From: an uncultured bacterium
Lineage (GTDB): Bacteria; Cyanobacteriota; Vampirovibrionia; Gastranaerophilales; Gastranaerophilaceae
DNA: 64,000 nucleotides
Reading direction: 5' to 3'
Assembly: GCA_946622415.1 (NCBI GenBank)
Contig: CAMOPX010000006.1
Span: 3,693 to 67,692 of the forward strand
Positions 10,780-57,546 of this stretch are shown piece by piece. Numbering within the stretch: the stretch's first letter is position 1; each line of letters opens with the position of its first letter. The translations under genes were made by a program, and so were the position numbers. The notes under the pieces were generated by a model, which saw nothing but the letters and a program-made list of their open reading frames with translations, was not told the DNA's origin and did no database searches.

Positions 10780-11865
10780 TTAAATATACAATTCGACAAT
10801 CTTTTTTATTTCGCTATAATACTCATTTATAACTTTTTCTTCGGTTAAATTTTTTACTGTTTCAATTGCATTGTTAGAAATTTCTTCTTTTGATGAATTT
10901 TGAATTCTGTATAATGTATCAACGATATTATTTGCATTTGGTTCGGTCAAAAAACCATTCATACCGTCTTCAATTATCCCATCTATTCCCGTGTTTTTGC
11001 ACCCCGCAACAACCAGCCCCCTCGCCATTGCCTCTATATATGAAATTCCAAATGTTTCTTTTATTGAAGGCAGAATAAAAACATCACTTTTATCCAACAT
11101 AAAATTTATGTTTTTATGAGGAATAAAAGGGTGAATTTTGATTTTATTTGAAAGATTTAATTTATTGATTAATTTTTGAAGATTATTTTTTTCTTTTCCT
11201 TCTCCAAAAATATCGTATCTGAAATCAAAATCAATTTTTGACAGGGCTTCTATAACAAGATTAATATTCTTTCTCTTTATAAATTTAGAAAGAGTGATAA
11301 ATTTTATCTTTTTTGATTGAAATTCTTTATATTCTAAAATGTTTTCTTCTTTAACAAATGAAGGCAAAATTTTTTGTGCGTTAAATGCTTCTTTTAAAAA
11401 TTTGTTTCTTGCGTATTTGTAGGTTGAATTTTTAATAGCATTTTTTAATAATTTTCTAAAATAAAATTTATAAAAAGGATTATTTATAACTTCCCAATCG
11501 CTCTGATGAAGAACAACAATATGCGGAAGATTGAGTTTTTTATTGATTAAATAAGAATAAATATGCCCCGACGGCATGTGAGAAATAATGACATCAAATT
11601 TATCTTTTAAATATGAAACATCGTTATTTAAAAAAGGAAGAAAGAAGTTTTTATTAATTACAACAATCCCTCGGGAATAATATTCACCGTTTTTTATAAT
11701 TCTATGACCTCTGATTAAAGAATTAAAAACAAAGTTCGGTCTTACAACTTTTATTTCACAGCCGATTTTTTTCAATCCGAAGGCAAAATCTTCAATTGTT
11801 GAAGGTATTGTTTTATCCGGATATAAAGAAATAGGATATAAATCTGTAATTAATAATATTTTCAC
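10780..11865 (-). CDS. Glycosyltransferase family 4 (GT-B, RfaG-like)
   Basis: 361 aa with the C-terminal signature PSIKETFGISYIEAMARGLVVAG..TGI..II.DG.NGFL. GTG start. Confidence 0.8.
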   Translation of the reverse strand: MKILLITDLYPISLYPDKTIPSTIEDFAFGLKKIGCEIKVVRPNFVFNSLIRGHRIIKNGEYYSRGIVVINKNFFLPFLNNDVSYLKDKFDVIISHMPSGHIYSYLINKKLNLPHIVVLHQSDWEVINNPFYKFYFRKLLKNAIKNSTYKYARNKFLKEAFNAQKILPSFVKEENILEYKEFQSKKIKFITLSKFIKRKNINLVIEALSKIDFDFRYDIFGEGKEKNNLQKLINKLNLSNKIKIHPFIPHKNINFMLDKSDVFILPSIKETFGISYIEAMARGLVVAGCKNTGIDGIIEDGMNGFLTEPNANNIVDTLYRIQNSSKEEISNNAIETVKNLTEEKVINEYYSEIKKIVELYI

Positions 11866-11880
11866 TATTTAATATTAGCA
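11866..11880 (-). promoter_or_regulatory. Extended -10 element placed for a leaderless transcript of the GT4 gene
   Basis: The minus strand reads TGcTAATAT + taaata (6 nt) + GTG start. There is no SD. Confidence 0.45.
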
Positions 11881-11944
11881 TAATTTGTCATTTTTTGATT
11901 TTTTTGAGATAATTAAGAAAAGACTGTTAATAAAGGAGTAATAC

Positions 11945-12739
11945 ATGTCAGGTCACTCTAAATGGGCAAATATTAAACACAAAAAAGCAAAAGCAGACGC
12001 AGCTCGTGGTGTCAATTTTGCTAAATTTTCAAGAGAAATCATTATAGCTGCAAAAATCGGCGGCGGTGATTTAAACGGAAACTTTAGACTAAGAACTGCT
12101 GTTGAAAAGGCAAAAGCAGGCGGTTTGCCCAATGATACCATTAAACGTGCAATCGATAAAGGTTGCGGAAACGGTGCTTCTGACAATTATGAAGAAATCA
12201 CATATGAAGGCTACGGCGCAGGCGGTGTTGCAGTATTCATAGAAGCTGCAACAGATAACAGAAATCGTACCGCAGGCGATATAAGAAGCTACTTTACAAA
12301 ATTCGGCGGAAATTTGGGCGAGACAGGTTGCGTTGGCTGGATTTTTGAACCATGCGGATTAATTGCAATAGATAAACCTGTAGAAGCAGGTAAACGCTCT
12401 AAAGAAGAAGTAAAAATGTTCGATTTTGATAAACTTCTTGAAGATTCAATGGAATTTGACCCTATGGATGTTTATGAAGATGAAGATGATGACGATTACA
12501 AAATAAAGACTACAACCGAACAACTGGAAGCAACAGCAAAAGGACTTGAGGCTTTAGGGTACACAATAAAAAGCGCCTCATTCACAAGAATCCCATCAAA
12601 TTCAAATGAAATTACAGATCCTGCCGTTGCAAAAAAGATTCTTCTTTTGCTTGAGAAATTGGATGAACACGATGATGTACAAAATGTTTATTCTAATTTT
12701 GAAGCAAGCGATGAAGTAATGAATTCTGTCGATATATAA
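11945..12739 (+). CDS. yebC: YebC/PmpR family transcriptional regulatory protein
   Basis: 264 aa with the N-terminus MSGHSKWANIKHKKAKADAARG. The SD aaaggag lies upstream, and the protein has an acidic insertion EDEDDDD. Confidence 0.9.
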   Translation: MSGHSKWANIKHKKAKADAARGVNFAKFSREIIIAAKIGGGDLNGNFRLRTAVEKAKAGGLPNDTIKRAIDKGCGNGASDNYEEITYEGYGAGGVAVFIEAATDNRNRTAGDIRSYFTKFGGNLGETGCVGWIFEPCGLIAIDKPVEAGKRSKEEVKMFDFDKLLEDSMEFDPMDVYEDEDDDDYKIKTTTEQLEATAKGLEALGYTIKSASFTRIPSNSNEITDPAVAKKILLLLEKLDEHDDVQNVYSNFEASDEVMNSVDI

Positions 12740-19578: not shown

Positions 19579-20310
19579 TTAAAAATTTTCTAACATATAT
19601 ATGGTACTATGCACACCTGCAACAACCGCATTAGGTGCTTTATATATCATTGAACCCAAAGATACAAGTTTAAATTTTTCTTCTTTGAAGTAATTAAATT
19701 CTTCTTCCGAAAATCCGCCCTCAGGACCAATCACAACTGCGATTTTTTCATTTTTATCAATATTTTTAATTGCATCTTGAAGCAAAATTGCAGAATATTT
19801 TTCCGCAAATATTATTATATTTTCTTTTTTAAAATTGTTTATTGCTTCTTTTAATTTTATTACGGGATGAATTTTTGGCATATCAGCTCTTTCGCACTGT
19901 TTAAAATTTTCGTATGCAATTTTTTCCCATTTTTCTTTTTTATTAATTAAAGAATTATAAGGTGCTGATGTGTTATCGGATATTACGGGATAAATTTCTT
20001 TGACACCTGTTTGTGTAGCATTAGCAATCAAAAGGTTTTGAGCATCATTCATCAAAACACTCTGAATAAGACAGACGTTATTTTTTATGATTCTTACACT
20101 TTTTTCTGTTTTAAGTATTTGAGCTTGCAGGTTTTTTTTATCTGCTTTTATTATTTTTGAATAATAAATGTTACCGTCAGAATCAATAAATTTAACCTTT
20201 TCGTTTGTTTTGACACGCAAAACCTTCGTCAAGTGATAAAAATTGTCATCACTATCTAAAGTTATTATATTGTTTTTTATTTGTTCATTGCTTATCAAAA
20301 AATGCGGCAT
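19579..20310 (-). CDS. rsmE: 16S rRNA (uracil1498-N3)-methyltransferase
   Basis: 243 aa with HL.KVLR near the N-terminus and the C-terminal SPOUT knot motif VIGPEGGFSEEE...LG..I.... Confidence 0.85.
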   Translation of the reverse strand: MPHFLISNEQIKNNIITLDSDDNFYHLTKVLRVKTNEKVKFIDSDGNIYYSKIIKADKKNLQAQILKTEKSVRIIKNNVCLIQSVLMNDAQNLLIANATQTGVKEIYPVISDNTSAPYNSLINKKEKWEKIAYENFKQCERADMPKIHPVIKLKEAINNFKKENIIIFAEKYSAILLQDAIKNIDKNEKIAVVIGPEGGFSEEEFNYFKEEKFKLVSLGSMIYKAPNAVVAGVHSTIYMLENF

Positions 20311-20447
20311 AATACCGTTATTTTAACACAAATCTTTAATTTGTACTACATATGGAGGATATTTTAAAATATTCCTAAAGTTGGTTAAATGCAACAGCAA
20401 TAAGGCTTTTTAAGGATTTCTCATACTAAAGTATAAAAATTTACAAC

Positions 20448-21736: not shown

Positions 21737-23005
<1,269 letters not shown>

Positions 23006-23119
23006 TTAAGTAACTCCTTATTAGAACATAAAACAATATAGCACAAATATTTTTTTTAAACTTTTAAATTGCACAAAAAGCTAATTAAAAAATACAAATC
23101 TTAATAATATTATTTTTTT

Positions 23120-24127
23120 ATGAAGATAATATTTTACGAAATAAAAGATTCGGAATTTGATTATTTATCTGAAAGAATTCCGAACACGATTGAACCTGTA
23201 TTCATAAAACATACGTTAAACGAATCAACTTATATAGACGAAAAACAAAAAAATATTGACGCAATCAGTATTTTTGTTGCAAGCAGATTGACAAAAAATG
23301 TACTCGAAAAATTTCCGAATTTGAAATATATTTTTTTAAGATGTTCGGGATATTCTAATGTTGATTCAGATTATTGCAAAGAAAAAAATATAACAATATT
23401 TAATACACCAAACTACGGAAGTTCTACTGTTGCGGAATATGTATTTACTTTAATTTTAGCGGTTTCTAAGAAATTAAATAAGACCGTGCGGGAATTAAAA
23501 AACGGTACAACAGATTCATCCGAACTCACGGGTATAGAACTATACAATAAAACAATAGGTGTAATCGGAACGGGAAACATCGGAAGAAAGGTTATTAATA
23601 TTGCCCATGGGTTTAATATGTCCGTATTAGCTTACGACATCAAAAAACAAGGTGCATATAATTATGTATCAATGGAAGAATTACTTTCAAAATCCGACTT
23701 TGTCAGCATAAACTGTCCTTTAACAAAAGAAACAAAAGGACTTATTAATAAATATACGCTATCTCTTATGAAACCAAATGCAATATTAATCAATACATCA
23801 AGAGGAGAAATAGTTTCAACAAAAGATTTATACACAGCACTCGTAAATAAAAAATTAAAAGGTGCGGGGCTGGATGTAATAGAATGTGAAGAACTTTTAT
23901 GTATGCAAAGAAAAGAATGCGAGAATTTTGATAATTTGAGAAATTACTGTCTTAAAAAATATTTTTTCATTCATAAACTTATGCAACTGGAAAATGTTGT
24001 TATAACACCGCACAATGCATACAATACAAAAGAAGCAAACCGAAGAATTTTAAATATTACATTGAATAATATAAATTCATGCAGTGATATAGAATTTTGC
24101 AATAAAAATCAAGTATTAATAAGTTAA
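23120..24127 (+). CDS. D-isomer-specific 2-hydroxyacid dehydrogenase (D-lactate dehydrogenase-like)
   Basis: 335 aa. Has the NAD-binding motif GVIGTGNIGRKV, an R/E/H catalytic pattern (NTSRG...D.....E....TPH). Confidence 0.8.
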   Translation: MKIIFYEIKDSEFDYLSERIPNTIEPVFIKHTLNESTYIDEKQKNIDAISIFVASRLTKNVLEKFPNLKYIFLRCSGYSNVDSDYCKEKNITIFNTPNYGSSTVAEYVFTLILAVSKKLNKTVRELKNGTTDSSELTGIELYNKTIGVIGTGNIGRKVINIAHGFNMSVLAYDIKKQGAYNYVSMEELLSKSDFVSINCPLTKETKGLINKYTLSLMKPNAILINTSRGEIVSTKDLYTALVNKKLKGAGLDVIECEELLCMQRKECENFDNLRNYCLKKYFFIHKLMQLENVVITPHNAYNTKEANRRILNITLNNINSCSDIEFCNKNQVLIS

Positions 24128-24153
24128 TATTTAAGACAATTTATTTTATTTTT

Positions 24154-24168
24154 TGATATAATTATCGT
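24154..24168 (+). promoter_or_regulatory. Extended -10 element placed for a leaderless deoC transcript
   Basis: TGaTATAAT + tatcgt (6 nt) + ATG at 24169. No SD. Confidence 0.5.
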
Positions 24169-24825: not shown

Positions 24826-24838
24826 AAAGGAAAGAAAA

Positions 24839-25036
24839 ATGACAAAAGAAGAAAACAAAATAACAATCAGATCAGACAGAGATACAGACTATACTTTTAT
24901 GTATAAAGGTGAAGAAGTTACACTCAAAGCAGGCAGTGTTGTTTCTATTGCCGACGGACTTAAAAACGTTGTCTTTCCGACTGTTGCAATGAAGATAATG
25001 AACAATCTTATTGTTATTAAAAAGGATGTTAAATAA
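24839..25036 (+). CDS. Small hypothetical protein (65 aa)
   Basis: SD aaaaaggaaag lies upstream. Its stop overlaps the ATG of the next gene (TAATG), indicating translational coupling. No recognisable motif. Confidence 0.4.
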   Translation: MTKEENKITIRSDRDTDYTFMYKGEEVTLKAGSVVSIADGLKNVVFPTVAMKIMNNLIVIKKDVK

Positions 25037-26729: not shown

Positions 26730-26753
26730 GATTGCGTTTTAGTGCGGATTATA

Positions 26754-26960: not shown

Positions 26961-26978
26961 GGCTCAAAGAAAAGAGGC
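26945..26978. repeat. Perfect 13-bp hairpin with purine-rich arm
   Basis: gcctcttttcttt pairs with aaagaaaagaggc around loop gcaggctc. It competes with the closing helix of the long hairpin. Confidence 0.6.
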
Positions 26979-42229: not shown

Positions 42230-42255
42230 TTATTCAGCGGAAAGGTTAATAAATT

Positions 42256-43425: not shown

Positions 43426-43443
43426 AAATATGATAAAACAATA

Positions 43444-43477
43444 AAAAAACCGATACTTTTGAGTATCGGTTTTTTTA
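43444..43477. terminator. Bidirectional terminator between oadB and the 461-aa gene
   Basis: A-run, then ccgatact / agtatcgg (43450-43469), then a T-run. The T-run overlaps the stop codon of the minus-strand gene. Confidence 0.75.
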
Positions 43478-44860: not shown

Positions 44861-44898
44861 TATGAATTGTCAGTAATTTAATTAATATTAAATTTTTT

Positions 44899-46647
44899 TT
44901 ACAATTCTTCTTTTAAAAGATATTCAGCGAGTTTTTGTTCGGTTGTTCCGTTTAATCTTTTTGAAATTTTCTTTAGTTTTTGACTAATAAGCTCCATTTC
45001 ATCAGTCCAAACAAAGTAATCATTAACGTATTTTTCACCTGCTGAAAAATCCTTACTCAGTTGAACCTTGATAATTTCCGAGAGCATTTTTTGCGCCGTC
45101 GGCACCATTTTTTCTATATCTATTGATAAAAAACCATCCGATGAAATTGAAATAGCTTTATTTAAAATAAAATAGTAATTTTGCATAACCGAGCGAACTC
45201 TGTGTGCTTGCGATAATTCCGGTTTTGATTTTAACATATTATCTGCCGCGTATGTTACTATTATTTTATTTCTTTCTTCTTTTGTGTATAATCCGGCATC
45301 AGTCAAAACATCAAGCATAGAAAGAGAAACCATATCAGCTTTATTTTCTTCAATAATTGATTTATATTTACCGAGTGCTTCCGTTCCTTCTTTTGGTCCT
45401 AAAGAATGCCCGTTTTCATGACCAATCGTAAACGGGTGATCCATTTTATCGTCATAAAATTTGTGAAAATTTTTATCTAAAATATTATCGAGTCTTTCTT
45501 GCAGTTTTTGTTTTGCATCTTCTGACGTTATAAATCTTATTTGTCTGTGGTAAACGTTTCTTCTTCCGCCACCTATGGTTAAAGACAATTTGTCATTGTT
45601 GGGTAAATTTTCAGCCAAAGTTATCCCTGCTCTAAATGCACCCACATCACCCGCAACATCAACCAAATCCACATCCACCATGGTTTGTGATATTTCATTC
45701 TTATCGGAAATTACTTGTTGATATTCGTCATTATAGGGCATATTTTTTGCCATTAGAGGCAAGTATTCTTTAACTTTTAAAATATAATCAGTACCTTCTT
45801 TATTGACTATACCTACTCTTGCACCCAGATAATCTTTTGAAATTACTTCTATATTGTTTTTATCGAGTAGATTTTTTAATTCTTCATTTTCAAGAACCGT
45901 TTCCGTCATTGTATCAGAGTAATTTTCTCTGGTTATTGTAAATTCAAGAGGAGTATCCTGCATTTTTGCCCATTTTCTATCCGCATAAGCATCCAGCATA
46001 GGATCCGCAACCAAAAATGCCTGTGCTTGAAGTCTTAAATATTCGTTAAAATCTATATTTGTCGAAAGACAGCTCGCTCTCAACAATAATTCCGCAGCAT
46101 TTTTAAAATCCTCTGAGAATTTATCCACATAATCAATTGCGACAAGTTCTTCTTTGCTTTCTTTATCCCATTCAATAACACTTCTTTGGTTTAATATTTT
46201 CCTTACGAGTTCAATCTTTCCATCTTTTATATATTTTATTAAAATATTATGAAATTTTTCTACGGTTAAATCCTCCGGATAGAAACCTCTGCCGCCCTTA
46301 AATTCCAATTCTTTTGCAAGGATTACCATATTAGATTCACAATCAAGAGAAAAAATTCCTTTTTGCGCATCAAACAATATTTTTGTTAATTTTGCCCTTT
46401 CATCGCCTTTTTTAATTTCATCTTCCAAGTATTTTTTAAAAGGTAAATTGTGACAAGAATCAAGCTCCATATTTATTTTTTCTATAATTCTTGCTGCTTT
46501 AACAAGATAAGAAAGAGCGTTTTTATCTCCGTCTGCAAGGTTATTAAATTCAGGCGAATCAACATCAAGCATTTTTTTGGTGACCAAACAGTCTTTTGAA
46601 GTTCTTTTCTTTAATTCATCTAAATCGAGATTGCATTCGTATTTCAT
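44899..46647 (-). CDS. Zinc metallopeptidase, dipeptidyl-peptidase III (M49)-like with pentapeptide HEXXH
   Basis: 582 aa. Has FTIGHENGHSLGP followed ~25 aa later by IIEENKADMV (compare the M49 motifs HEXXGH / EECRAE). SD aagaggaaa / taggat upstream. Confidence 0.5.
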   Translation of the reverse strand: MKYECNLDLDELKKRTSKDCLVTKKMLDVDSPEFNNLADGDKNALSYLVKAARIIEKINMELDSCHNLPFKKYLEDEIKKGDERAKLTKILFDAQKGIFSLDCESNMVILAKELEFKGGRGFYPEDLTVEKFHNILIKYIKDGKIELVRKILNQRSVIEWDKESKEELVAIDYVDKFSEDFKNAAELLLRASCLSTNIDFNEYLRLQAQAFLVADPMLDAYADRKWAKMQDTPLEFTITRENYSDTMTETVLENEELKNLLDKNNIEVISKDYLGARVGIVNKEGTDYILKVKEYLPLMAKNMPYNDEYQQVISDKNEISQTMVDVDLVDVAGDVGAFRAGITLAENLPNNDKLSLTIGGGRRNVYHRQIRFITSEDAKQKLQERLDNILDKNFHKFYDDKMDHPFTIGHENGHSLGPKEGTEALGKYKSIIEENKADMVSLSMLDVLTDAGLYTKEERNKIIVTYAADNMLKSKPELSQAHRVRSVMQNYYFILNKAISISSDGFLSIDIEKMVPTAQKMLSEIIKVQLSKDFSAGEKYVNDYFVWTDEMELISQKLKKISKRLNGTTEQKLAEYLLKEEL

Positions 46648-46722
46648 TTTCTATCCTAATTTCCTCTTAATTTTTCAACATATTATATCATTATATTTAA
46701 AATATTTCACTATAAATCAAAA

Positions 46723-47565
46723 TTAATTATAGTTAAAAACAAATGTTCTCTTGCATTTAAAACCGTCAGGATAAGAATTTTGGGTTGAATATGAAACCAT
46801 ATTGTCTTTTTTATTCATATCTATCGATATTCCCTGCTTTCCTTCCATATCACCGTCGTGAATTTCTTCAGGCGACATAAATAAAATTTGCATTTTTCCT
46901 TTGCCGTCTTTTTCTTTGGACATAATTAAAATGCCATCATCAGAAACAGTGGTCTTGTTTTGGAGTTTTGAATCTTTGTTATTCTTATAAAATTCTTCCA
47001 TTAATTCGGCACAAGTATCATTTTCTCCATCGAAAAACTCCCTCTTTACAGCCTTTATTAAATCGTATGCTAAAAAGTTTTTTTCTTTATAGGTTTTTTC
47101 CGAATCATTTGATAAATTAATTTCAACTACGTTATCGCCTTTTCTGTACGCAAGAAAGTATTTGCTTATTAATAAATCGGAATCTTCTCCCGTAGGATAT
47201 TTGTATAAGTACCTTTTCCCACCGGAATATATTGCGGTAGTTTGCATATTTTCTTCTATATTATCAAAAAATCTTCCTTTGCCTTGATTTTGTTGATAAA
47301 GACTTCTCAAGATTTTTATCGCTTTTTTATGGTCGTTACTGTCAATTGCTTTATTAATACCCAAGCTTGCTCTTGATATATTTTTTCCGTAATTTTGTTC
47401 AAAATTTATCTTGTTATATGAGCCTGAAAGTTCCAATGCAGAATAATCAAAACCTCTTTCTGTATTTGTTTTTAAGGATTGCAAACTGTTTTTATTCTGA
47501 TTTGTTCTTAAAACCAAACTGTGTGACGTTATTCCGTTTATTTTCATATACAGATTGTAACACAT
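46723..47565 (-). CDS. Hypothetical protein (orphan, 280 aa in the long ORF)
   Basis: No recognised family. The probable true start is the ATG at 47547 (MKINGITS...). Confidence 0.45.
   Translation of the reverse strand: MCYNLYMKINGITSHSLVLRTNQNKNSLQSLKTNTERGFDYSALELSGSYNKINFEQNYGKNISRASLGINKAIDSNDHKKAIKILRSLYQQNQGKGRFFDNIEENMQTTAIYSGGKRYLYKYPTGEDSDLLISKYFLAYRKGDNVVEINLSNDSEKTYKEKNFLAYDLIKAVKREFFDGENDTCAELMEEFYKNNKDSKLQNKTTVSDDGILIMSKEKDGKGKMQILFMSPEEIHDGDMEGKQGISIDMNKKDNMVSYSTQNSYPDGFKCKRTFVFNYN
47548..47562 (-). promoter_or_regulatory. Extended -10 element placed for a leaderless transcript of the 280-aa gene
   Basis: The minus strand reads TGtTACAAT + ctgtat (6 nt) + ATG (47547). Confidence 0.45.
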
Positions 47566-47631
47566 TATGTCCGCTTTATAATAAAATATTTAAATATATT
47601 AAGCTATCATATAAATCAATTTTCAAGTTTT

Positions 47632-47646
47632 TGGTATAATAAGATA
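47632..47646 (+). promoter_or_regulatory. Extended -10 element placed for a leaderless MFS transcript
   Basis: TGgTATAAT + aagata (6 nt) + GTG at 47647. Confidence 0.45.
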
Positions 47647-48903
47647 GTGAATAATATTACACTCCACAAAAAACACTACTTAAGATTATCATTAATTATT
47701 ATAGCAACAGTATTTTACTTTTTAGCCAATATACAAAGAGTTGCTATTCCGGGAGCAATTTTTGATTTATTACAGAATGATTTAGCCGCCTGTGCATCTA
47801 AAATAACCTTGTTAGGTGCAATTTTTTGCTATATTTATGCAATAACGCAACTTGTTGTCGGATTAATGGTGGATAAAATAGGAGGGTTTAGGGTAATTGC
47901 AATTGGCGCTGTTGCTTTTGCTTTGGGCGCAATATTATTCCCACACAGTCAATCATTTTTCGGATTGTATATTTCAAGAGCGCTTGTCGGATTTGGTTCT
48001 GCAACCTTTTATTTAAGCGCCGTGAGAGAAGTTAAAAAATACGTTCACGATAAGAATTTCACTCTTGCAATTTCTTATATTTTGTTTTTTGGTTACAGCG
48101 GAGGTATAATCGCAAATGCACCTTTGGTTTCCGTAATAAATAAAACAAGCTGGCAAGCCGTATTTTATTTTATAGGATTTTTCAGTTTATTTTTATGTGT
48201 TTTATATTTAATTCTTTTATTTATTTTTAAACCCGTTCATTCGGAAAAAGAAACAAGGTTTTCTTTTGCACCGTTTAAAGAAATTTTAACCAACAAGGAT
48301 AACATAATCCTTTACTTGTTCGGAAGCACAAATTATGGACTGTATTATGTTTTGCAGAGTGTTATAGGAAAAAAATTCTTACAGGATTTTTGTTATTATA
48401 ATGTATCTGATAGTGCGATTGTATTATCAATTATGGCTTTGATTTCAGCGATTGCAGGCACAATAACCGCATATATTTCAAGATGTATGAACAATAAACG
48501 TACAGGAATATTCAGAACGTATGCAATACTTTCTTTTTTATCTTCTCTTTCGGTTTGTTTATTTTTGATACTTGATATTCATACAAAAATTATTGCATTT
48601 ATATTTTTAATCCCTTCTTTTATCGGGAGTATCTCACCTATTCTTATTTTGACGTTGCATATAATAAACAGATACGAAGTTTCAGCAACCGCCGTTGCAA
48701 TTCAAAATTTCGGATTTTTTATGATGGTAGGGATTTTAGGTACACTATCAGGGGTTTTGATGAATTTGTTTGAACCCGTAAAAACAGGTAATGCCTTAAT
48801 TTATCCGAACAATTCATATTTATTGGTTTTTGGAGTGTTTTTAGTACTTAGTATTGTAGAAGTTATTTGCGCTTTTAAAACTAAAGACAACTACGGAAAA
48901 TAA
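47647..48903 (+). CDS. MFS transporter (12-TMS type)
   Basis: 418 aa with about 12 hydrophobic spans and the motif-A-like GLMVDKIGGFRV. GTG start. Confidence 0.75.
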   Translation: MNNITLHKKHYLRLSLIIIATVFYFLANIQRVAIPGAIFDLLQNDLAACASKITLLGAIFCYIYAITQLVVGLMVDKIGGFRVIAIGAVAFALGAILFPHSQSFFGLYISRALVGFGSATFYLSAVREVKKYVHDKNFTLAISYILFFGYSGGIIANAPLVSVINKTSWQAVFYFIGFFSLFLCVLYLILLFIFKPVHSEKETRFSFAPFKEILTNKDNIILYLFGSTNYGLYYVLQSVIGKKFLQDFCYYNVSDSAIVLSIMALISAIAGTITAYISRCMNNKRTGIFRTYAILSFLSSLSVCLFLILDIHTKIIAFIFLIPSFIGSISPILILTLHIINRYEVSATAVAIQNFGFFMMVGILGTLSGVLMNLFEPVKTGNALIYPNNSYLLVFGVFLVLSIVEVICAFKTKDNYGK

Positions 48904-48940
48904 AGTTTTTGATTAACGATTTTTATAATAAAATATTTTT

Positions 48941-49501
48941 ATGAATATCATTTTAGCAAGCGCTTCTCCGAGAAGAAAAGAAATACTTAAATCTAAAGGG
49001 TACGATTTTAAAATAATCCCTTCCTCTTATGATGAAAACATTACATCAAAAAAATATTCAAAAGAGCTTGTTGAATTTTGCGCATACAATAAGGCACTTG
49101 ATGTATTAAAAAACAATAACGACTCTGTCATTGTATCGGCAGATACAGTCGTTGTAATTGATGATATAATTTTAGGAAAACCAAAAGATAAACTTGATGC
49201 TTTTAACACTTTAAAAAAATTATCCGACAGAACTCATTTTGTTTCTACTTCGATATGCATTTTATCTTCATCAAAAAAAATTACTGCAACGGATACAACT
49301 TATGTAACCTTTAGAACATTAAGCGATGAAGACATAACAAAATATATTGAAACCAAAAACCCGTTAGATAAAGCAGGAAGCTATGGAATACAAGATGACG
49401 GATTTGATTTTTGTATAAAAACCGAAGGTGAAATCGATAATATTATCGGTTTTCCTCTAAAATTATTTGAAGAAAAATTGAAAGAATTTAATAAGGAATA
49501 A
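48941..49501 (+). CDS. maf: Maf-like nucleoside triphosphate pyrophosphatase
   Basis: 186 aa. Has ILASASPRRKEIL, SADTVV, GKP and KAGSYGIQ. Confidence 0.88.
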   Translation: MNIILASASPRRKEILKSKGYDFKIIPSSYDENITSKKYSKELVEFCAYNKALDVLKNNNDSVIVSADTVVVIDDIILGKPKDKLDAFNTLKKLSDRTHFVSTSICILSSSKKITATDTTYVTFRTLSDEDITKYIETKNPLDKAGSYGIQDDGFDFCIKTEGEIDNIIGFPLKLFEEKLKEFNKE

Positions 49502-49504
49502 AAT

Positions 49505-49993
49505 ATGGAACAAGATATAGAACAATCAGAAAGCCAAGAAATCTCGAGAGTAGAATATATAAGAGAACTAATTGCGGATTCAAGATATGATGACGCAATG
49601 GAAATGTTGCAAATAGCAATGGATGAAGAACCTGACAACATAGACTATAATTACGAATTAGCCAGAATATTTATGGAGATGGGTAATTACGCTTCAGCAA
49701 TTTCTAATTTAGAATTGGTAGCAGATGGGGTCAGAAATCATTTGATATATTATATGCTTGCAGAAGCCTATCAAGCAGATGACCAGATAGATAGAGCAAT
49801 AGGTTCATACTTAAAAGCTCTAATGCTCAACGAAAAATTTGCACCTGCATATAAAAAACTAGGTACACTGTTTTTAGGCAGAAACGATAAAGAATCCGCA
49901 ATAGAATACTTTGAAGACTATATCAAGCTTGATATCCCCCAAGAAGAAAAAGAACAAACAAAAAAAATTCTATCAAGAATTAAAGGAGGATAA
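49505..49993 (+). CDS. TPR repeat protein
   Basis: 162 aa with about 3 TPR-like units (A..Y...A..Y......A...Y.KAL.L...). Confidence 0.65.
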   Translation: MEQDIEQSESQEISRVEYIRELIADSRYDDAMEMLQIAMDEEPDNIDYNYELARIFMEMGNYASAISNLELVADGVRNHLIYYMLAEAYQADDQIDRAIGSYLKALMLNEKFAPAYKKLGTLFLGRNDKESAIEYFEDYIKLDIPQEEKEQTKKILSRIKGG

Positions 49994-49995
49994 AA

Positions 49996-50259
49996 ATGCA
50001 AGAAGCAAAAAATGTTGAAATTTACACTCTCGATTATTGCCCTTATTGTATGAAAGCAAAGATTTTTCTTGACGAGCATAATGTAGAATATAAAGAAATA
50101 TCCTGCGAAGATGATGAAGAAAATTTCAGAAAAAAATTAACTGAAAAATACAACCTGCCCAACCTTGCAACTTTTCCGCAAATCATTATAAACGGAGAAA
50201 ACATAGGCGGTTATAGCGATTTAATAGATAAATTCGGCAGAGGCGAAATAAGTTTTTAA
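49996..50259 (+). CDS. grxC: Glutaredoxin
   Basis: 87 aa. Has the CPYC active site, TFPQIIING..IGGYSDL. Confidence 0.88.
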   Translation: MQEAKNVEIYTLDYCPYCMKAKIFLDEHNVEYKEISCEDDEENFRKKLTEKYNLPNLATFPQIIINGENIGGYSDLIDKFGRGEISF

Positions 50260-51083
50260 GCACCCGACATTTCTTTTAAAAAGATGTTGGCCTTTGCAAG
50301 TATCGTTTCTCTTAATGCAATAGGGTCTTGAATCGTAAACTCAATTTTACTCATTATCTTCGGGTTCAATATAGGATTAGGTATAATATTTTGAACAAGT
50401 CTGTCAGCACAATAAACGACACCGCACAATGTAGGAAGTGAGCTTTGAACAGGGTCGTGGTGATATCTGATACAATTTGTTAAAATAACGGGTAATTGCC
50501 ATTTTTTGGATATCAATGCACCTAAAATACAGTGGTTTGTTCCGAACTGCGCATCTTCAACCTCAACAAGATCAACGTTGCTTTGTTGTGCGAGATATCT
50601 TACTTTTGAATATTTAAGCGGGTTTTTTGTGTTTAAAAGAATCTTGCCTATATCATGCAAAAAACCTATAACGAAAGCGTCATCAGGGTTTATTACTCTA
50701 TATTCTTTTGCAAGTACTTCTGCTGCAATTGCACATTTAATTGAATGCTCCCATAATTCACGGCTTCCTTGGGCAGTCATCATTTTCTTTAGAGCAAGAC
50801 TCATTATGATGTTTTTCGCCTTCATCATACCCAAAACAACAAGGGCTTTATTAATTGATGTAATTTGTTGACGAAAACCATAGAATGCCGAATTAACCAA
50901 CATTAATGTTTTTGTAGCTATTGCCTGATCCATTTGCATAATTTTGCCGAGCTCAGCTATACCCGTTGCCGGATTTTTTATTACATTCAACGCTTTAACC
51001 ATAACATTAGGCATAGGCGGAATGTCTTTGAACTCTGCAACCACCTGTTGAGGATCTAATTTATTTGAACCGTTATTCATCAT
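50256..51083 (-). CDS. HDOD domain signalling protein
   Basis: 275 aa. Has LPPMP-type N-terminus IPPMPNV and GFLHDIGKILL. It is the last gene of the ftsEX-containing operon. Confidence 0.75.
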   Translation of the reverse strand: MMNNGSNKLDPQQVVAEFKDIPPMPNVMVKALNVIKNPATGIAELGKIMQMDQAIATKTLMLVNSAFYGFRQQITSINKALVVLGMMKAKNIIMSLALKKMMTAQGSRELWEHSIKCAIAAEVLAKEYRVINPDDAFVIGFLHDIGKILLNTKNPLKYSKVRYLAQQSNVDLVEVEDAQFGTNHCILGALISKKWQLPVILTNCIRYHHDPVQSSLPTLCGVVYCADRLVQNIIPNPILNPKIMSKIEFTIQDPIALRETILAKANIFLKEMSGA

Positions 51084-51087
51084 AATC

Positions 51088-52005
51088 TTATACCTGCAAA
51101 TGTTTCTTTATACTTAAAAAACTACCCACTGAAGAAAAAGTAACACCCAGTGTTAATACACTAAATAATACGGTAAACTGTGCCAACGGGTCAATCGGTA
51201 TCATAAAAAATTCATGTATTTTTATGATATATTCCTGAACAATTTTTATCGGAACAATGGCAACCAATGCTCCAAAGAATCCGTATATGGCACCTTGCAA
51301 TATTAAAGGTGTTTTAATATACCAATTTGAAACCCCCATCAATCTCATTATTTCTATTTCTTCTTTTCTGGATTGAATAACGAGCTCTATGGTATTATTA
51401 ATTATTGCGATTGTTAATATACAAACAATAGCAAGGAAAATTAGTGTTGCAGTATTAATAACCGCATTAATCATTTCAAATTTTTCCACTAAATCCTTTG
51501 CGTAACTTGTATCACTGATTCCGTTTACGGTTTTTAATTCCTGCATCACGGCAACCAGATTCTTTGTATTGTCAATTTTAACATGAAGCGTATCAGGCAA
51601 TGGATTTTGTATATCCGGAACATCTATTTCCGTTTTTAATTGCTTCCACGATGCATCCTTTGACACAAAAGAAACCTTCTGTACATGGTCAAGGTTTTTT
51701 ATTGCCGTAATTGTTTGATTTACGTCCGCATTTTGATTAAGATATGCGCTTATTTCCAATGCAGAACCCATTGAATTAGCAAAAGAGTTGAGTGTCAATG
51801 TAACTCTGAATATAGAACCAAAGATTGTTAATATTGCAGCAATTGTTGTTATAATTGCGATATTAACAAGCCCTGTTCTAACCACTCCTTTTACGGTTTC
51901 AATGATTATTCTGTAGGCAATTCTAATCTCACTCATCCAATCCTTTGGAATGTGCGATTTCACTCTTTGTTTTATATTTTGATTTCTGTTATTTCTTCTA
52001 GTCAT
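51088..52005 (-). CDS. ftsX: Cell division ABC transporter permease FtsX
   Basis: Has 4 TM segments with a large first periplasmic loop, plus the motif MRLMGVSNWYI. The ORF extends to a TTG at 52032. The ATG at 52005 overlaps the ftsE stop (ATGACTAG) and is preferred. Confidence 0.85.
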   Translation of the reverse strand: MTRRNNRNQNIKQRVKSHIPKDWMSEIRIAYRIIIETVKGVVRTGLVNIAIITTIAAILTIFGSIFRVTLTLNSFANSMGSALEISAYLNQNADVNQTITAIKNLDHVQKVSFVSKDASWKQLKTEIDVPDIQNPLPDTLHVKIDNTKNLVAVMQELKTVNGISDTSYAKDLVEKFEMINAVINTATLIFLAIVCILTIAIINNTIELVIQSRKEEIEIMRLMGVSNWYIKTPLILQGAIYGFFGALVAIVPIKIVQEYIIKIHEFFMIPIDPLAQFTVLFSVLTLGVTFSSVGSFLSIKKHLQV

Positions 52006-52672
52006 ATGTTCCGGCTTCTCTATCACTGACAACTTGTCCGTGGTTAAGTGTAACTACTCTTTTTCTGAAGTAATTAACCATATTTTGGTCATGTGTTGAA
52101 ACAAGTATGGTAATTCCTCTTTGGTTAACCTGTTCGAGTATCTGCATAACTTCAAGCGAATTTTTCGGATCGAGATTACCTGTAGGTTCATCCGCTATCA
52201 ATAACGGAGGCCCGTTCACAATTGCACGTGCGATGGAAACTCTTTGTTGTTCACCGCCTGATAATTCACTGGGTTTTGATTTGTATTTATCCTCTAAACC
52301 GACAACCTTCAAGGCGCCCATTACTCTTGTTTCAATTTCTTTTGATGAAATACCCATTGTTCTTATTACATATGCGATATTATCATATACTGTATGGTTT
52401 TGAAGCAATTTATAATCCTGAAAAACAATTCCCATACATCTTCTTAAACTCGGAATTTTGCTCGGTGGGAGATTTCCTATGTCTATACCTGCAACATACA
52501 CGCTGCCCCTTGTCGGTCGCTCTTCCAGGTATAGCATTTTCATCAATGTAGATTTTCCCGCACCTGATGACCCTACAAGAAACACAAATTCACCGGGTCG
52601 AATATCCAAATCAATTCCCCTGAGCGCGTATTTATTTTTATATTGTTTAACTAAATCTCTTATTACAATCAT
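51998..52672 (-). CDS. ftsE: Cell division ATP-binding protein FtsE
   Basis: 224 aa. Has Walker A GSSGAGKST, the signature LSGGEQQR and Walker B LLIADEPTGNLD. Confidence 0.93.
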   Translation of the reverse strand: MIVIRDLVKQYKNKYALRGIDLDIRPGEFVFLVGSSGAGKSTLMKMLYLEERPTRGSVYVAGIDIGNLPPSKIPSLRRCMGIVFQDYKLLQNHTVYDNIAYVIRTMGISSKEIETRVMGALKVVGLEDKYKSKPSELSGGEQQRVSIARAIVNGPPLLIADEPTGNLDPKNSLEVMQILEQVNQRGITILVSTHDQNMVNYFRKRVVTLNHGQVVSDREAGTYD

Positions 52673-53631
52673 CTTACATCCATAAATTTAATTATTTTTT
52701 CATATATTTTCTTGTCGGTTAAACCGTAAAATTCCATTAGTTGTCTTTGTTCACCGGATTGACCGAAGGTATCTTTTGTGCCGATTCTGTACACTTTAGA
52801 AGGTGCATAATGACACAACGATTCACAAACCGCACTGCCTAATCCGCCTATCACACTGTGATTTTCAACAACAACAACTTTTTTGGTTTTTTGCGCACTT
52901 GCTTTAAGTGCTAAGTGGTGGAACGGTTTAACAACCGGATAATGCAATACATCGGCTTCAATTCCAACTTCATGGAGCTTTTGTGCAGTTGATAACACTT
53001 CGTACAATGTTTCACCGTTTGTAACAATAGTCAAATCCTTTCCGTCACGGAGTTTTATTCCCGCATTCGGATTAAATTTGTAATCTTTATCAAAAATGTT
53101 TTTGAGATTTGTTCTCGGTATTCTGATATACATCGGAAGCGGTGTTCTTGCAGCATATTCTATAACCTGACGTACTTCATTACAATCCGCAGGAACAATA
53201 ACACGCATATCAGGAATTGAACGCATATACGAAACATCCTCTAATGCCTGATGAGAAGCACCATCTTCACCCACCGTAATTCCCCCGTGGGTAGCAACAA
53301 TTTTAACGTCCAATTTTGAATAACAAACCGTATTCCTTATTTGGTCAAGACATCTCGTTGTTGCAAACATTGCAAACGTACTTGCAAAAACAGTTTTTCC
53401 GCCATAAGCAAGACCTGCAGCCGTTGTAATCATATCTTGTTCTGCTATACCGCAATTAAAAAATCTTTCGGGATATGCTTTTTTAAACATGGCAGTTTGG
53501 GTAGAACATGACAAATCTGCGTCTAATACAACAATATTGAGATTTTTTCCGCCTAATTCAACAAGCGTTTCACCGTATGTTTTTCTCGGGGATTTTGTTT
53601 CAGGCTTTTCTAAGAGATTTTTTACTAGCAT
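52669..53631 (-). CDS. Transketolase, C-terminal (pyrimidine-binding) subunit
   Basis: 320 aa. Has GIAEQDMITTAAGLA and HGGITVGEDGASHQ. Overlaps the N-terminal subunit gene. Confidence 0.88.
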   Translation of the reverse strand: MLVKNLLEKPETKSPRKTYGETLVELGGKNLNIVVLDADLSCSTQTAMFKKAYPERFFNCGIAEQDMITTAAGLAYGGKTVFASTFAMFATTRCLDQIRNTVCYSKLDVKIVATHGGITVGEDGASHQALEDVSYMRSIPDMRVIVPADCNEVRQVIEYAARTPLPMYIRIPRTNLKNIFDKDYKFNPNAGIKLRDGKDLTIVTNGETLYEVLSTAQKLHEVGIEADVLHYPVVKPFHHLALKASAQKTKKVVVVENHSVIGGLGSAVCESLCHYAPSKVYRIGTKDTFGQSGEQRQLMEFYGLTDKKIYEKIIKFMDVR

Positions 53632-54428
53632 AATTCCTCCAGCGCTTTTTTAAGTTCTTCATCGTTCGGTGCTTTTCCATGCCATGAAACATTGTTTTCC
53701 ATAAATGAAACACCCTTGCCTTTTATAGTATTCGCAATTATTGCAGTAAGTTCGTTTGATTTTTTCGCATCAAGCAAAACTTTTTCCAATTCTTCAAAAT
53801 TATGTCCGTCAACTGTTTTTACATTAAATCCGAAAGCTTCTAATTTTTTATCAAGAGGCTCTAACGTTTTAACATCATTTGTCGAACCGTCGATTTGCAG
53901 GTTGTTTTTGTCTATTATTACAACAAGATTTTTAAGCTTTTGATTATTTGCATTCATTAATGCTTCCCAAACGCTTCCTTCCTGCATTTCACCATCGCCC
54001 ATTAAAACAAAAACTTTTGATTTAATGTTATCTAATCTCATTGCAAGAGCCATACCGACACCGATAGAAAGTCCTTGTCCTAAAGAACCTGTTGAAACCT
54101 CAATTCCCGGTAGTCCTACTCTTGATGAAGGGTGTCCTTGAAGTTTTGAACCCAGTATTCTAAAACCCATTAACAAGTCTTTTGAAAAATAACCGCAATG
54201 CGCAAGAACAGCATACAGAGCGGGGCTTGCATGTCCTTTTGAAAGAATAAATCTGTCCCTGTTTTTAAAATCTACGGCATTTGCCCATTCAACAGGTACA
54301 TTTAAAACTTTCTTATATAATACCGATAAAATATCAACGCATGAACACGCACCACCGGGGTGACCTGATTTTGCGTTGTGAATCATTTTTAGTATGTCTT
54401 TTCTAACCGCATTCGTAAACGTTTTCAA
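53625..54428 (-). CDS. Transketolase, N-terminal (TPP-binding) subunit
   Basis: 267 aa. Has SGHPGG, SKGHASPALYA and the TPP motif GDGEMQEGSVWEA...NL. Confidence 0.9.
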   Translation of the reverse strand: MKTFTNAVRKDILKMIHNAKSGHPGGACSCVDILSVLYKKVLNVPVEWANAVDFKNRDRFILSKGHASPALYAVLAHCGYFSKDLLMGFRILGSKLQGHPSSRVGLPGIEVSTGSLGQGLSIGVGMALAMRLDNIKSKVFVLMGDGEMQEGSVWEALMNANNQKLKNLVVIIDKNNLQIDGSTNDVKTLEPLDKKLEAFGFNVKTVDGHNFEELEKVLLDAKKSNELTAIIANTIKGKGVSFMENNVSWHGKAPNDEELKKALEELC

Positions 54429-54432
54429 AATA

Positions 54433-55164
54433 TCAATCCTTATTCATTACAGTACTTATTATACACTTTATCAAAAATATTGGCAAAAGCGGGAATATTC
54501 TTTTGAATCTTTCGGGCTGCAAGATTGTTCTATAAAGCCACTCCAGACCTAATTTCCGGTATATTAAAGGTGCTTCTTTAACAATTCCCGAAAATACGTC
54601 AAAACTTCCACCGACACCAATCATAGCAGTACCTTTTAATTCGCTTTTTAATTTATAAATTAATTCTTCTTGTTTGGGAGAACCTAAACCAACAAGCAGA
54701 ATTTTAAGGTCTGCATTTTTAATTTGTTCAATTATTTCATTATCATCCGAAAAATAGCCGTTTCTGATATATGCAATATCAAGCGCCGGAAATTCTTTTA
54801 AAATATTTTCTTTTGCCTTTTGAATAACTTCTTCTTTTGCACCCAAAAGACCTATTTTATAACCTTTTTGTGAGGCTGTTTTTATGAGCAATCTTGAAAA
54901 ATCTATCCCTCTGATTTGATTTATTTTTATTCCTTTTAGTTTCAGTGCAATCTTTACACCAACACCGTCAGGTATAACCAAATCCGCAGAATTTACTATA
55001 TCAAAAAAAGTCTTGTTTTTTTGAGCATTTATAATCATTTCGGGATTAATTGTTACTATTTGAAAATTAATATTTTCATTGATGGCTGAAAGAACTCTTT
55101 CCAGTGCGTCCTCAACCCCGCATAAATCAACATGACAATTCAGAATAGAAACTTTTTCATTCAT
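54433..55164 (-). CDS. WecG/TagA/CpsF family glycosyltransferase
   Basis: 243 aa. Has PDGVGV, VGLGSPKQE, GVGGSFDVFSG and GLEWLYR. Confidence 0.85.
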   Translation of the reverse strand: MNEKVSILNCHVDLCGVEDALERVLSAINENINFQIVTINPEMIINAQKNKTFFDIVNSADLVIPDGVGVKIALKLKGIKINQIRGIDFSRLLIKTASQKGYKIGLLGAKEEVIQKAKENILKEFPALDIAYIRNGYFSDDNEIIEQIKNADLKILLVGLGSPKQEELIYKLKSELKGTAMIGVGGSFDVFSGIVKEAPLIYRKLGLEWLYRTILQPERFKRIFPLLPIFLIKCIISTVMNKD

Positions 55165-55199
55165 ACTGATATAGTATCATAAAATATATTTTTTAAAAA

Positions 55200-56735
55200 C
55201 TATTGTTCGTCTTCTTCTGTGTCATTGTAATTATAAAAATACTGACATCCGTTCCATATACATATTTCTACCTGAGAAACATTACATTTTCCGACAACAC
55301 AATCAAGAGTACCGTCGGGACTTATTGAAAAATGTTCACAATTTTGACAAACTTTTAAAGTTAAGTCTTTTGATTTTAATTTGTATGTCATATCAGCCAT
55401 GGCATCATACATTCTTAAACATAAATCAGTTGAAATAAAACGATTTCCTTCTCTGAATACGACTTTTTTCATGCCGTCTTCCGATACTAAATCCAATTTA
55501 CAATTTATATCTTTTTTTCCATGTCTTACAACAGCACTTACGGTAGCAGAATTAATGTTTTCTTCTTCATATTTACTGTTTTTAATTGACCTCATGGTCA
55601 AATTGTTAATATAGAGTTTTGTTTTTTGCCAAGTAAGACAAAAAGGATAAAATATCAAAAAGAACACTTCAGATGCAGTCATTTTTGAAATAAATATTGA
55701 AAATAAAAAGTTAGCAAACAAAAAAGCACCCAATACAATAACAAAATTAGAAGCAACATGCTGCGGAAAAGATACCGACAACGATAAAAGTCCTATGTAT
55801 GCTGCAATAACCAAGATTGAATTAGGTTTTAAGCAAAAGAGTATAAACTCTTTGAAAGTTAAATCCTTGAAAAACAAAAATTTAAAATAGTATGAAAAAA
55901 GATGTATCTTATTTTTCAACGAGGGTGAAGCAAAATTATAATTTTTAATATCAACACCCGTGATAATGTATGGAGAATAAATTGATTTTATACCGTTAGA
56001 AGCCAAATCCAGAGTATATTCAAGCTCTATATCTTTATCTTCTACGCTTATGTATCCTATTTGGTTTAAAACATCAGAAGTTATAACAAAATTTTCTCCG
56101 TCAATCAAGAAAGGTAAATTAAACATAGAACGAACAAGGTTGTAGGTTCTGTTTGAATATTTTAAATATGATGAAATAACAGCCTGCTTTAATCTTTTTG
56201 CAAACTGTTTGTTTTTATTCATCGTAATTTTTGTACCTACATAAACCCCGGGTTCTGTAATTGTTTTATTGATATTATAAAGATATTTTTCGCCTATTAT
56301 TCTCTTTGCACCTAAAAATATAAATGCATCAAAGTTTTTTTCGGGAAGTAATTTTTGAATTAATAAATTAAGCGCTTTATCTTTTGAAAAGAAATCCGGA
56401 TTTTGAATATTATGAATTCTTGCGCCCAGCGCAAAATCTCTTTCCGCGTTTGTATCGTTCATATCTTTCTGAAATGCGACATGGACTTCGTAATTATCTT
56501 TTGAATAATCCTGATTATTCAAAGAAGCAAGAAGTTTATCAAGATTTTTATCTCTGCTTGTAGCGTATATTAAAACACAGAGTCTTTTATTTTCCGTAAC
56601 TTTACTTCTGTTAATTTCCTGTTCGTATGCAAAGTTGTCTAAATTTCTGGCTTTTATATAAAAGAAAAGTTGGTATATGCAATAAATAAACAGATAAATT
56701 ATTATTATAGCGAATAATACATCAAATAATATCAT
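55200..56735 (-). CDS. Membrane-anchored GT2-like protein with C-terminal Cys-rich (zinc-ribbon-like) tail
   Basis: 511 aa. Has an N-terminal TM segment and a GT-A start (LCVLIYATSRDKNLDKLLASLNNQDY), but the expected DxD position reads FLGAK. Mid-protein TM segments are present. The tail is CQNCEH...C..GKC......C..NGC. Confidence 0.5.
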   Translation of the reverse strand: MILFDVLFAIIIIYLFIYCIYQLFFYIKARNLDNFAYEQEINRSKVTENKRLCVLIYATSRDKNLDKLLASLNNQDYSKDNYEVHVAFQKDMNDTNAERDFALGARIHNIQNPDFFSKDKALNLLIQKLLPEKNFDAFIFLGAKRIIGEKYLYNINKTITEPGVYVGTKITMNKNKQFAKRLKQAVISSYLKYSNRTYNLVRSMFNLPFLIDGENFVITSDVLNQIGYISVEDKDIELEYTLDLASNGIKSIYSPYIITGVDIKNYNFASPSLKNKIHLFSYYFKFLFFKDLTFKEFILFCLKPNSILVIAAYIGLLSLSVSFPQHVASNFVIVLGAFLFANFLFSIFISKMTASEVFFLIFYPFCLTWQKTKLYINNLTMRSIKNSKYEEENINSATVSAVVRHGKKDINCKLDLVSEDGMKKVVFREGNRFISTDLCLRMYDAMADMTYKLKSKDLTLKVCQNCEHFSISPDGTLDCVVGKCNVSQVEICIWNGCQYFYNYNDTEEDEQ

Positions 56736-56787
56736 AGTTGTATTTTAAATAAAAAAAAATTAAAAATCTAGTTTTTTTATTATTAAC

Positions 56788-56802
56788 TGATATAATCAAT
56801 TT
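56788..56802 (+). promoter_or_regulatory. Extended -10 element placed for a leaderless mlaE transcript
   Basis: TGaTATAAT + caattt (6 nt) + ATG at 56803. Confidence 0.5.
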
Positions 56803-57546
56803 ATGATAAAATTTCTCGGTCAGTGCGTTCAAAACTTATTCTCGGCAATTAAATATACTCTGAAGGGGAACCTCAGATTCAGCTCGGTAATTGCTCAAAC
56901 AGCATCAATCGGATTTGATTCACTGGGAATATGTATTTCGATTGTGTTTATTGCTGCCTGTGTTATTGCACTTCAAGTTGCACACCAATTTTTAATGTCC
57001 GGCGGAGATAGCTATATCGGCGGTTTTCTTGCCGTAGCTTTAATTAGGGAAATCGCACCGGGGTTTGCGGCATTTGCACTGGCTGCAAGAGCAGGTACCG
57101 CAATAACGGCACAAGTTGCAAATATGCAAATAACAGACCAAATCGATGCAATAGAAGTATTAAAAGTTGATTCTGTCGGATATTACTTTGCGCCGAGAAT
57201 TATTGCAGGAGCTTTATCTTGTTTTTGTATAGTTATGCTTGCGGAATTAATAGGAATAGCAGGCGGAGCTTTGGTTTCATATTTTTCTATTGATTTACAC
57301 CCCATCAGATACTTTAATTCCGTATGGTTAATGCTTGTTTTAAAAGATGTTTATATCAGCCTTTTGAAAGCAGTTATCTTTGGCGGTATTATTGCTTTAA
57401 TTTGTTCAACAGCAGGCTACAATACAAGAGGCGGCGCCATTAATGTCGGAAAATCAACAACAATGTCTGCAATACTTTGTACCGTATATATTCTTGTTGC
57501 GGATATGGTTATAGACATTTTGTTTTATATGGGTAATGTCAGATAG
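56803..57546 (+). CDS. mlaE: MlaE/YrbE/TGD1-type ABC transporter permease
   Basis: 247 aa. Has GGFLAVALIREIAPGFAAFALAARAG and about 5 TM segments. No adjacent ATPase or MCE genes. Confidence 0.85.
   Translation: MIKFLGQCVQNLFSAIKYTLKGNLRFSSVIAQTASIGFDSLGICISIVFIAACVIALQVAHQFLMSGGDSYIGGFLAVALIREIAPGFAAFALAARAGTAITAQVANMQITDQIDAIEVLKVDSVGYYFAPRIIAGALSCFCIVMLAELIGIAGGALVSYFSIDLHPIRYFNSVWLMLVLKDVYISLLKAVIFGGIIALICSTAGYNTRGGAINVGKSTTMSAILCTVYILVADMVIDILFYMGNVR

Follow-up and report, generated by a model that had tools for sequence, protein, structure and literature searches.

Extended -10 promoter motifs at a fixed distance of six nucleotides from start codons in Gastranaerophilales: a probable class of leaderless mRNAs

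Leaderless genes of bacteria have a published signature, a TANNNT hexamer located some 12 nt before the start codon, and genes that carry it have been called TA-led (Zheng 2011, PMC3160421). In group C of the GeneMarkS-2 classification, a Pribnow box lies 6-8 nt from the start of operon-first genes in 25-50% of operons (Lomsadze 2018, PMC6028130). The group consists mainly of Actinobacteria and Deinococcus-Thermus, with high G+C (PMC6028130). Cyanobacteria fall mostly into group X, or are described as using neither mode (PMC6028130, PMC3160421), and differential RNA sequencing has detected 51 leaderless mRNAs in Synechocystis 6803 (PMC4195498) and 19 in Synechococcus elongatus UTEX 2973 (PMC6091082). 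Here, a 64,000-nt stretch of DNA from an uncultured member of the Gastranaerophilales (Cyanobacteriota; assembly GCA_946622415.1, contig CAMOPX010000006.1, positions 3,693 to 67,692), referred to in full as the window, is analysed for a recurrent arrangement in which a TGn-TAnnAT element ends exactly six nucleotides before the start codon.

Extended -10 (TGn) promoters, including those with the TRTG "-16 region" of low-G+C Gram-positive bacteria, are defined independently of the start codon. The elements of the window resemble them in the TG one base before the hexamer, the T-rich segment just upstream and a -35 element that is weak or dispensable, and differ in that a subset is locked 6 nt from the start codon. 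As in TA-led and group C genes, TANNNT runs from about 12 nt to 6-8 nt before operon-first starts, and the remaining genes are led by Shine-Dalgarno (SD) sites; the share is of the same order, 25-50% of operons there and approximately 16-27% of non-coupled starts here. By contrast with group C, the host is a member of the Gastranaerophilales with 33% G+C, and the element has the full TAnAAT, a frequent TG and a spacing that is almost invariably 6. The oxygenic cyanobacteria belong to the same phylum and would work alike, with transcription starting on or next to the AUG, but their cases are few and have experimental 5' ends, whereas about 10% of genes are concerned here and the ends are predicted from sequence. 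No literature linking leaderless genes with Melainabacteria, Vampirovibrionia or Gastranaerophilales was found among the papers searched.

Taken as a class, the elements are likely to be extended -10 promoters placed for leaderless mRNAs. TGn-TAnnAT would serve as the extended -10 promoter of the primary sigma factor, usually with a weak -35 element, and RNA polymerase would start 7 nt past the hexamer, so that the first base transcribed is the A (or G) of the start codon. The resulting mRNA would have neither a 5' untranslated region nor an SD site, and the ribosome and initiator tRNA would bind the 5'-terminal AUG directly. The remaining Gastranaerophilales genes rely on SD sites or carry no recognisable signal. 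The phenomenon is well known; new are the lineage and the unusually strict, low-G+C extended -10 form.

A motif fixed at six nucleotides from the start codon

The window (G+C 32.8%) was compared with 80 loci from species-representative genomes, retrieved with the radA protein as query (58-90% identity) and adding 1.32 Mb. Nearly all of these loci are labelled Candidatus Gastranaerophilales, Melainabacteria or Vampirovibrio, and the sequencing runs whose DNA matches the window are gut metagenomes (sheep, bovine and other). The window is accordingly assigned to a ruminant-gut member of this non-photosynthetic cyanobacterial class. Genes were called with our own open reading frame (ORF) selector, scored on codon usage, giving 59 genes in the window and 1245 overall, and the called genes were clustered into 517 families. 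For 57 window genes and 1130 genes of the 80 loci, none of them cut by a sequence end, we measured how far the end of a -10-like motif lies from the first available start codon. The chance expectation for the motif with its start codon, TGNTANNAT-N6-RTG, comes from 100 dinucleotide-preserving shuffles of the window. An unconditioned tally of ATG at successive offsets from all motif occurrences was dropped in favour of these gene-start-conditioned counts, because 3-nt coding periodicity dominated it.

On both strands of the window, TGNTANNAT occurs 102 times, and in eight cases the start codon of a long ORF follows exactly six bases on. Seven of the eight had been listed in a first-pass annotation of the same DNA and one is new. 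A sequence check finds all 11 sites quoted in that annotation in place, letters and coordinates alike; its list of TGn sites had overlooked a ninth, at 55179-55162 on the minus strand. With the start codon included, TGNTANNAT-N6-RTG is observed 10 times vs 1.5 expected (standard deviation 1.2, shuffle maximum 5), and starts of called genes account for 8 of the 10 matches. Counting the motif at each distance from gene starts had been set beforehand as the test of the arrangement, and the count gives a sharp spike at exactly 6 nt in both the window and the 80 loci: TGnTAnnAT stands at this distance in 7 of the 57 window genes, and at every other distance from 0 to 40 in none or one.

Across the 80 loci, TGnTAnnAT at 6 nt precedes 40 genes, vs 0-8 at other distances, and TAnnnT at 6 nt precedes 159, vs approximately 25-75. 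At the level of families, TGnTAnnnT is found at 6 nt in 20, and in 0-4 at any other distance between 0 and 20. Mononucleotide shuffles give a distance count of 1.9 vs 64 observed, and the peak is retained in three clades of radA identity with radA itself excluded. Spacing in the TGn class is N6 in 67 cases, N5 in two and N7 in seven, so that N6 makes up about 88%; a small secondary count is seen at N9 across related loci. The distance histograms also contain a second, broad hump at 20-35 nt, which is the same promoter type with a short SD-containing leader. Measured as the excess at 6 nt, the leaderless-type share of non-coupled starts is 16% order-wide and 21% in the window's own clade. An artefact of in-frame stop codons, in which TGA or TAA within the motif would force the choice of the first start, was rejected because every multiple of three should then rise, yet 6 alone does, with no enrichment at distances 0, 3, 9 and 12. 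Independent public gene calls for one locus (L084) add three further cases, and those for the SD-rich locus L083 contain no case. At 7220-7260 of L084, a perfect consensus promoter, TTGACA-17-TATAAT-N6-ATG, stands ahead of a HigB-like toxin gene.

Conservation can be followed most closely in radA, whose product starts with MAK(V/I)K.KW.CQ.CG in 81 species. TAnnnT stands at N6 in 41 of the 81 (32 with TG) and at N7 in five; of the 28 species with no hexamer, 25 have a purine-rich, SD-like stretch. The flanks on either side of the element could not be aligned between species, and what persists across species is therefore the geometry, not the sequence. Three of the contigs with a radA at 59-66% identity (L031, L054 and L078) are metagenome-assembled sequences labelled Gammaproteobacteria or Muribaculaceae; their radA neighbours are typical of Gastranaerophilales, and the labels are probably wrong.

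Promoter features and alternative explanations

The motif is distributed according to transcription units. Ahead of translationally coupled genes (same-strand gap of at most 10 nt) it is found in 16 of 387 cases (4.1%), which equals background, vs 18% in divergent contexts and 20-32% after gaps of 11-150 nt. TG precedes 40% of the hexamers at 6 nt and 0-23%, mostly about 5%, of those elsewhere; in the window it is present at -15/-14 at 9 of 12 sites. A start-codon-aligned position matrix, in which radA was left out and every family counted equally, shows T at -35 (60%) and -34 (51%) and G at -33 (28%), that is a weak -35 element with a spacer of exactly 17 bp, followed by a T-rich segment from -19 to -17, then TG, then TAnAAT. 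The weak or dispensable -35 element that is characteristic of extended -10 promoters is thus found here as well. A pyrimidine at -1 followed by a purine at +1 is an established context of bacterial transcription starts. T occupies -1 in 42 of 53 family representatives vs 124 of 304 other genes (Fisher p = 2e-7), and the start codons of the TGn class are ATG in 64 cases, GTG in three and TTG in none. An SD site (GGAG, GAGG or AGGA) is found in 2 of 169 genes with a hexamer at 6 nt vs 405 of 1016 others, a contrast that is partly forced because the hexamer fills part of the SD search window. The geometry, its enrichment, its restriction to non-coupled starts, the exclusion of SD sites, the promoter features and the conservation are all direct observations on the DNA. 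Judged on its sequence context, the motif behaves like a promoter and not like a ribosome site, because it is at background ahead of coupled internal genes and has features of the polymerase type.

The alternatives differ in how much of this they can accommodate. Chance, in an AT-rich genome (33% G+C) where TAnnAT-like hexamers abound and some must fall 6 nt before an ATG, finds a foothold in the plain hexamer: window-wide, TANNNT-N6-ATG shows no enrichment (56 observed vs 67 expected), and a generic scan for sigma-70 -35/-10 pairs gives 86 sites vs 92 in shuffles. The generic scan also missed most of the candidates and is uninformative in an AT-rich genome; the low yield of a search that demands both hexamers fits promoters relying on the extended -10. 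With TG the excess over shuffles appears, mostly on gene starts, and the spike stands at exactly 6 nt, and not at neighbouring distances, in 20 families and three clades; the stop-codon artefact was rejected as above. As an account of the class as a whole, chance is refuted, and we regard it as extremely improbable; individual TG-less sites may be chance. A reading of the A/T-rich motif as a non-SD translation signal on leadered mRNA, as in Bacteroidetes (GeneMarkS-2 group B), is in keeping with its location at the position of a ribosome site and with the approximately 45% of genes that have neither SD nor motif, which indicate that non-SD initiation exists here. Such a signal should also precede internal genes of operons, and the mark of group B, a motif ahead of all genes including operon-internal ones, was not found, the motif being at background at coupled genes. 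The TG at -15/-14, the TTG at -35 with its 17-bp spacer and the T(-1)A(+1) step are features of RNA polymerase, and the same TGnTAnnAT recurs 20-35 nt upstream of SD-led genes, all of which makes a translation signal very unlikely. The sequence marks of group C, namely the 6-nt peak, the restriction to first genes, the freedom from SD sites and the ATG or GTG starts, were all found.

A further possibility is that the promoters are real, but give leaders of 1-5 nt, or are secondary internal promoters of genes translated mostly from longer transcripts. It draws on deoC, maf, the WecG gene, birA and the 461-aa orphan, which lie 35-87 nt after same-strand genes with no terminator seen, on an RNA contig (23929-24170) that spans the deoC promoter, on the N7 and N9 variants and on the GTG starts with A at -1. 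The precision of N6 (about 88%) would be puzzling if the 5' end did not have to match the AUG, and no SD site is available to serve a longer transcript; this possibility is therefore considered unlikely, though less so than the other two. We infer the position of the transcript 5' ends and the mode of translation from the arrangement as a whole, and several points weigh against placing extended -10 promoters for leaderless mRNAs at all of these starts. The metatranscriptomes that contain the organism (5-9% of sampled words) yield sparse assembled contigs of 30-400 nt, scattered over 22900-25100 and 37500-57400 with no usable ends, and no transcript 5' end was observed. For the several candidates that follow a same-strand gene at 35-87 nt, and for which no intervening terminator was detected, read-through and hence leadered transcripts may also exist. 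A single gene, radA, supplied the homologous neighbourhoods behind the statistics, and the genes were called with our own ORF-based caller, a weakness that is partly offset by the family-level counts and the public gene calls. One site, with the hexamer TTTAAT, has lost the most conserved base of the -10 element, and two GTG starts have A at -1, allowing a 1-nt leader. The three TG-less sites are each compatible with chance and, the plain hexamer being unenriched, are individually inseparable from it within the window. Support for these comes only from the order-wide excess, in which 102 TG-less TAnnnT stand at N6 (169 minus 67); TAnnnT of any kind, with or without TG, number approximately 25-45 at each of the neighbouring distances.

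Sites in the window and the two orphan genes

The sites of the window are the following; the last two are a near-leaderless candidate and a leadered reference case.

11863-11880, minus strand: TGCTAATAT-N6-GTG, GT4 glycosyltransferase gene (10780-11865), divergent from yebC
23108-23122, plus strand: TATTAT-N6-ATG, TG-less, D-2-hydroxyacid dehydrogenase gene (23120-24127), no SD, T at -1, divergent from ahcY
24154-24171, plus strand: TGATATAAT-N6-ATG, deoC aldolase gene (24169-24825), 41 nt after a same-strand gene
36249-36266, minus strand: TGATAAAAT-N6-ATG, radA (34854-36251)
39557-39574, plus strand: TGTTATGAT-N6-ATG, biotin-protein ligase gene birA (39572-40147)
44834-44851, minus strand: TGCTTTAAT-N6-ATG, non-canonical hexamer, 461-aa orphan with its start at 44836 (453 aa), not 44860 (461 aa)
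47545-47562, minus strand: TGTTACAAT-N6-ATG, second (280-aa) orphan with a proposed start at 47547 (274 aa, not 280)
47632-47649, plus strand: TGGTATAAT-N6-GTG, MFS transporter gene (47647-48903)
48929-48943, plus strand: TAAAAT-N6-ATG, TG-less, maf (48941-49501), 37 nt downstream of the MFS gene, no SD, T at -1
55162-55179, minus strand: TGATACTAT-N6-ATG, spacer atcagt, WecG/TagA glycosyltransferase gene (54433-55164), newly added
56733-56747, minus strand: TAAAAT-N6-ATG, TG-less, gene (55200-56735) of a 511-aa membrane protein that weakly matches GT2
56788-56805, plus strand: TGATATAAT-N6-ATG, mlaE permease gene (56803-57546)
20308-20328, minus strand: TGTTAAAAT-N9-ATG, rsmE-like methyltransferase gene (19579-20310)
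46645-46690, minus strand: TGATATAAT, then 34 nt with an AGGA SD site, then ATG, 582-aa gene (leadered reference case)

In total, about 12 of the 59 window genes are candidates for the leaderless type (12 of the 34 or so non-coupled starts), approximately 26-30 genes (flagellin, yebC, ahcY and gyrB among them) are SD-led, and approximately 17 have neither signal. The coexistence of two modes of initiation, as the first-pass annotation had proposed, is borne out by SD sites on 35-41% of starts. The SD sites that it had named for fliC, yebC, ahcY, gyrB and the genes at 13802, 34186 and 36404 are present, although several read AAGGA and not GGAG. Its description of the leaderless-type genes as operon-leading was assumed and not shown for deoC, birA, maf and the 461-aa orphan, each of which has a same-strand gene 37-87 nt ahead.

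The N-termini of RadA, Maf, DeoC and MlaE are canonical by their Pfam coordinates. In DeoC the Pfam match runs from protein residue 13, equal to profile position 12, and in Maf it covers residues 2-183; the maf site is individually uncertain as a leaderless promoter. Orthologues of deoC in distant species have AAGG SD-like sites in place of the leaderless-type promoter. A metatranscriptome contig of 242 nt (run X23, 23929-24170) extends from the upstream dehydrogenase gene across the deoC promoter to the second base of the ATG. It hints at read-through or at a 3' end at deoC, and at a depth of 2 permits no conclusion. The promoter arrangement of birA is kept in a related locus (L030). In another (L085, 86% related), the MFS gene keeps TATAAT-N6-GTG and has lost the TG. 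The rsmE-like gene is a candidate for a near-leaderless transcript, with a predicted leader of about 3 nt. The reference case at 46645-46690 belongs to the second peak at 20-35 nt.

The two GTG-start candidates (11863-11868 and 47644-47649) share the context ATAGTGAA(A/T)AATATTA, with A and not T at -1, and this likeness may be a coincidence. Due to the A at -1, their transcripts may begin at -1 or at +1, and a 1-nt leader is possible. Two pairs of starts lie back to back: 47547 and 47647, separated by a 99-nt intergenic region (47548-47646), and 56735 and 56803, separated by 67 nt (56736-56802). Each of these compact divergent regions appears to hold two complete promoters and zero untranslated region, and both genes of each pair would be leaderless.

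The first-pass annotation had argued that the long ORFs of the two orphans begin with translated promoter sequence and that the true proteins start at MKI. For the 461-aa orphan this start is confirmed, since every one of 29 homologues has its first residue where MKISSLNN begins. At 93% and 86% identity, the two nearest are both 453 aa long, and the 86% relative, in L085, keeps TGCTTTAAT-N6-ATG and has no upstream ATG. These homologues come from a protein search; a metagenome scan gave just two C-terminal fragments. The site had also been described as a TGnTAnnAT element, which it does not fit: its TTTAAT has no A at position 2 of the hexamer, so that the promoter assignment is weaker here. 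An alternative -10 element, a conserved CATAAT, lies 21 nt further upstream.

The 280-aa orphan has a sole homologue (94% identity) among 5.8 billion proteins, and the DNA at this point is identical in the two. Due to this identity, the start at 47547 is proposed from the geometry of the site. The gene (46723-47565, minus strand) is missing from L085, where the MFS and 582-aa genes are directly divergent (2214-2320), and would seem to be very young or a recent acquisition. Paralogy of the two orphans, considered as the source of their similar N-terminal peptides, was rejected (BLASTP E = 3). The peptides CFNLYM and CYNLYM correspond to TGY-TWY-AAT-YTR-TAT-ATG translated in frame, that is a promoter read as peptide.

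Lineage, gene-start annotation and a gene-free stretch

We lean towards the view that Gastranaerophilales, perhaps all Vampirovibrionia, are an unrecognised low-G+C lineage with substantial use of leaderless mRNAs within Cyanobacteriota. If this is true, either the ancestor of the phylum already had leaderless initiation and the phototrophs lost most of it, or the gut lineage expanded it; the sister-group contrast is with oxygenic cyanobacteria and their 19-51 mapped leaderless mRNAs per genome. The strict TGn-TAnAAT-N6-AUG register would then provide a clean natural system for the co-evolution of promoter and start codon. It is also predicted that about a tenth of the genes of gut Melainabacteria are translated with no ribosome-binding site. 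SD-led initiation is found on abundant proteins, namely flagellin, gyrase B and AdoHcy hydrolase, and GroES/EL in a related locus.

For the annotation of gene starts, the arrangement means that callers which expect an SD site or take the longest ORF place such starts too far upstream, within the promoter. The extension MCYNLY is present in the public copy of the 280-aa orphan, and the 461-aa ORF of the window carries MSYCFNLY, which is found in no homologue. To specialists the result should be useful, both for gene starts in metagenome-assembled genomes and for comparison with phototrophs, and not surprising.

The tenth of the TGNTANNAT-N6-RTG matches, an extended -10 element with a GTG at 27103-27120 (minus strand), was treated as chance because no ORF lies behind it. 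A gene-free stretch of 378 nt between convergent genes occupies 26730-27107, for which Rfam gave no family at threshold. It contains two long hairpins flanked by A/T, at approximately 26940-26985 and 27000-27055, which are probably bidirectional terminators.

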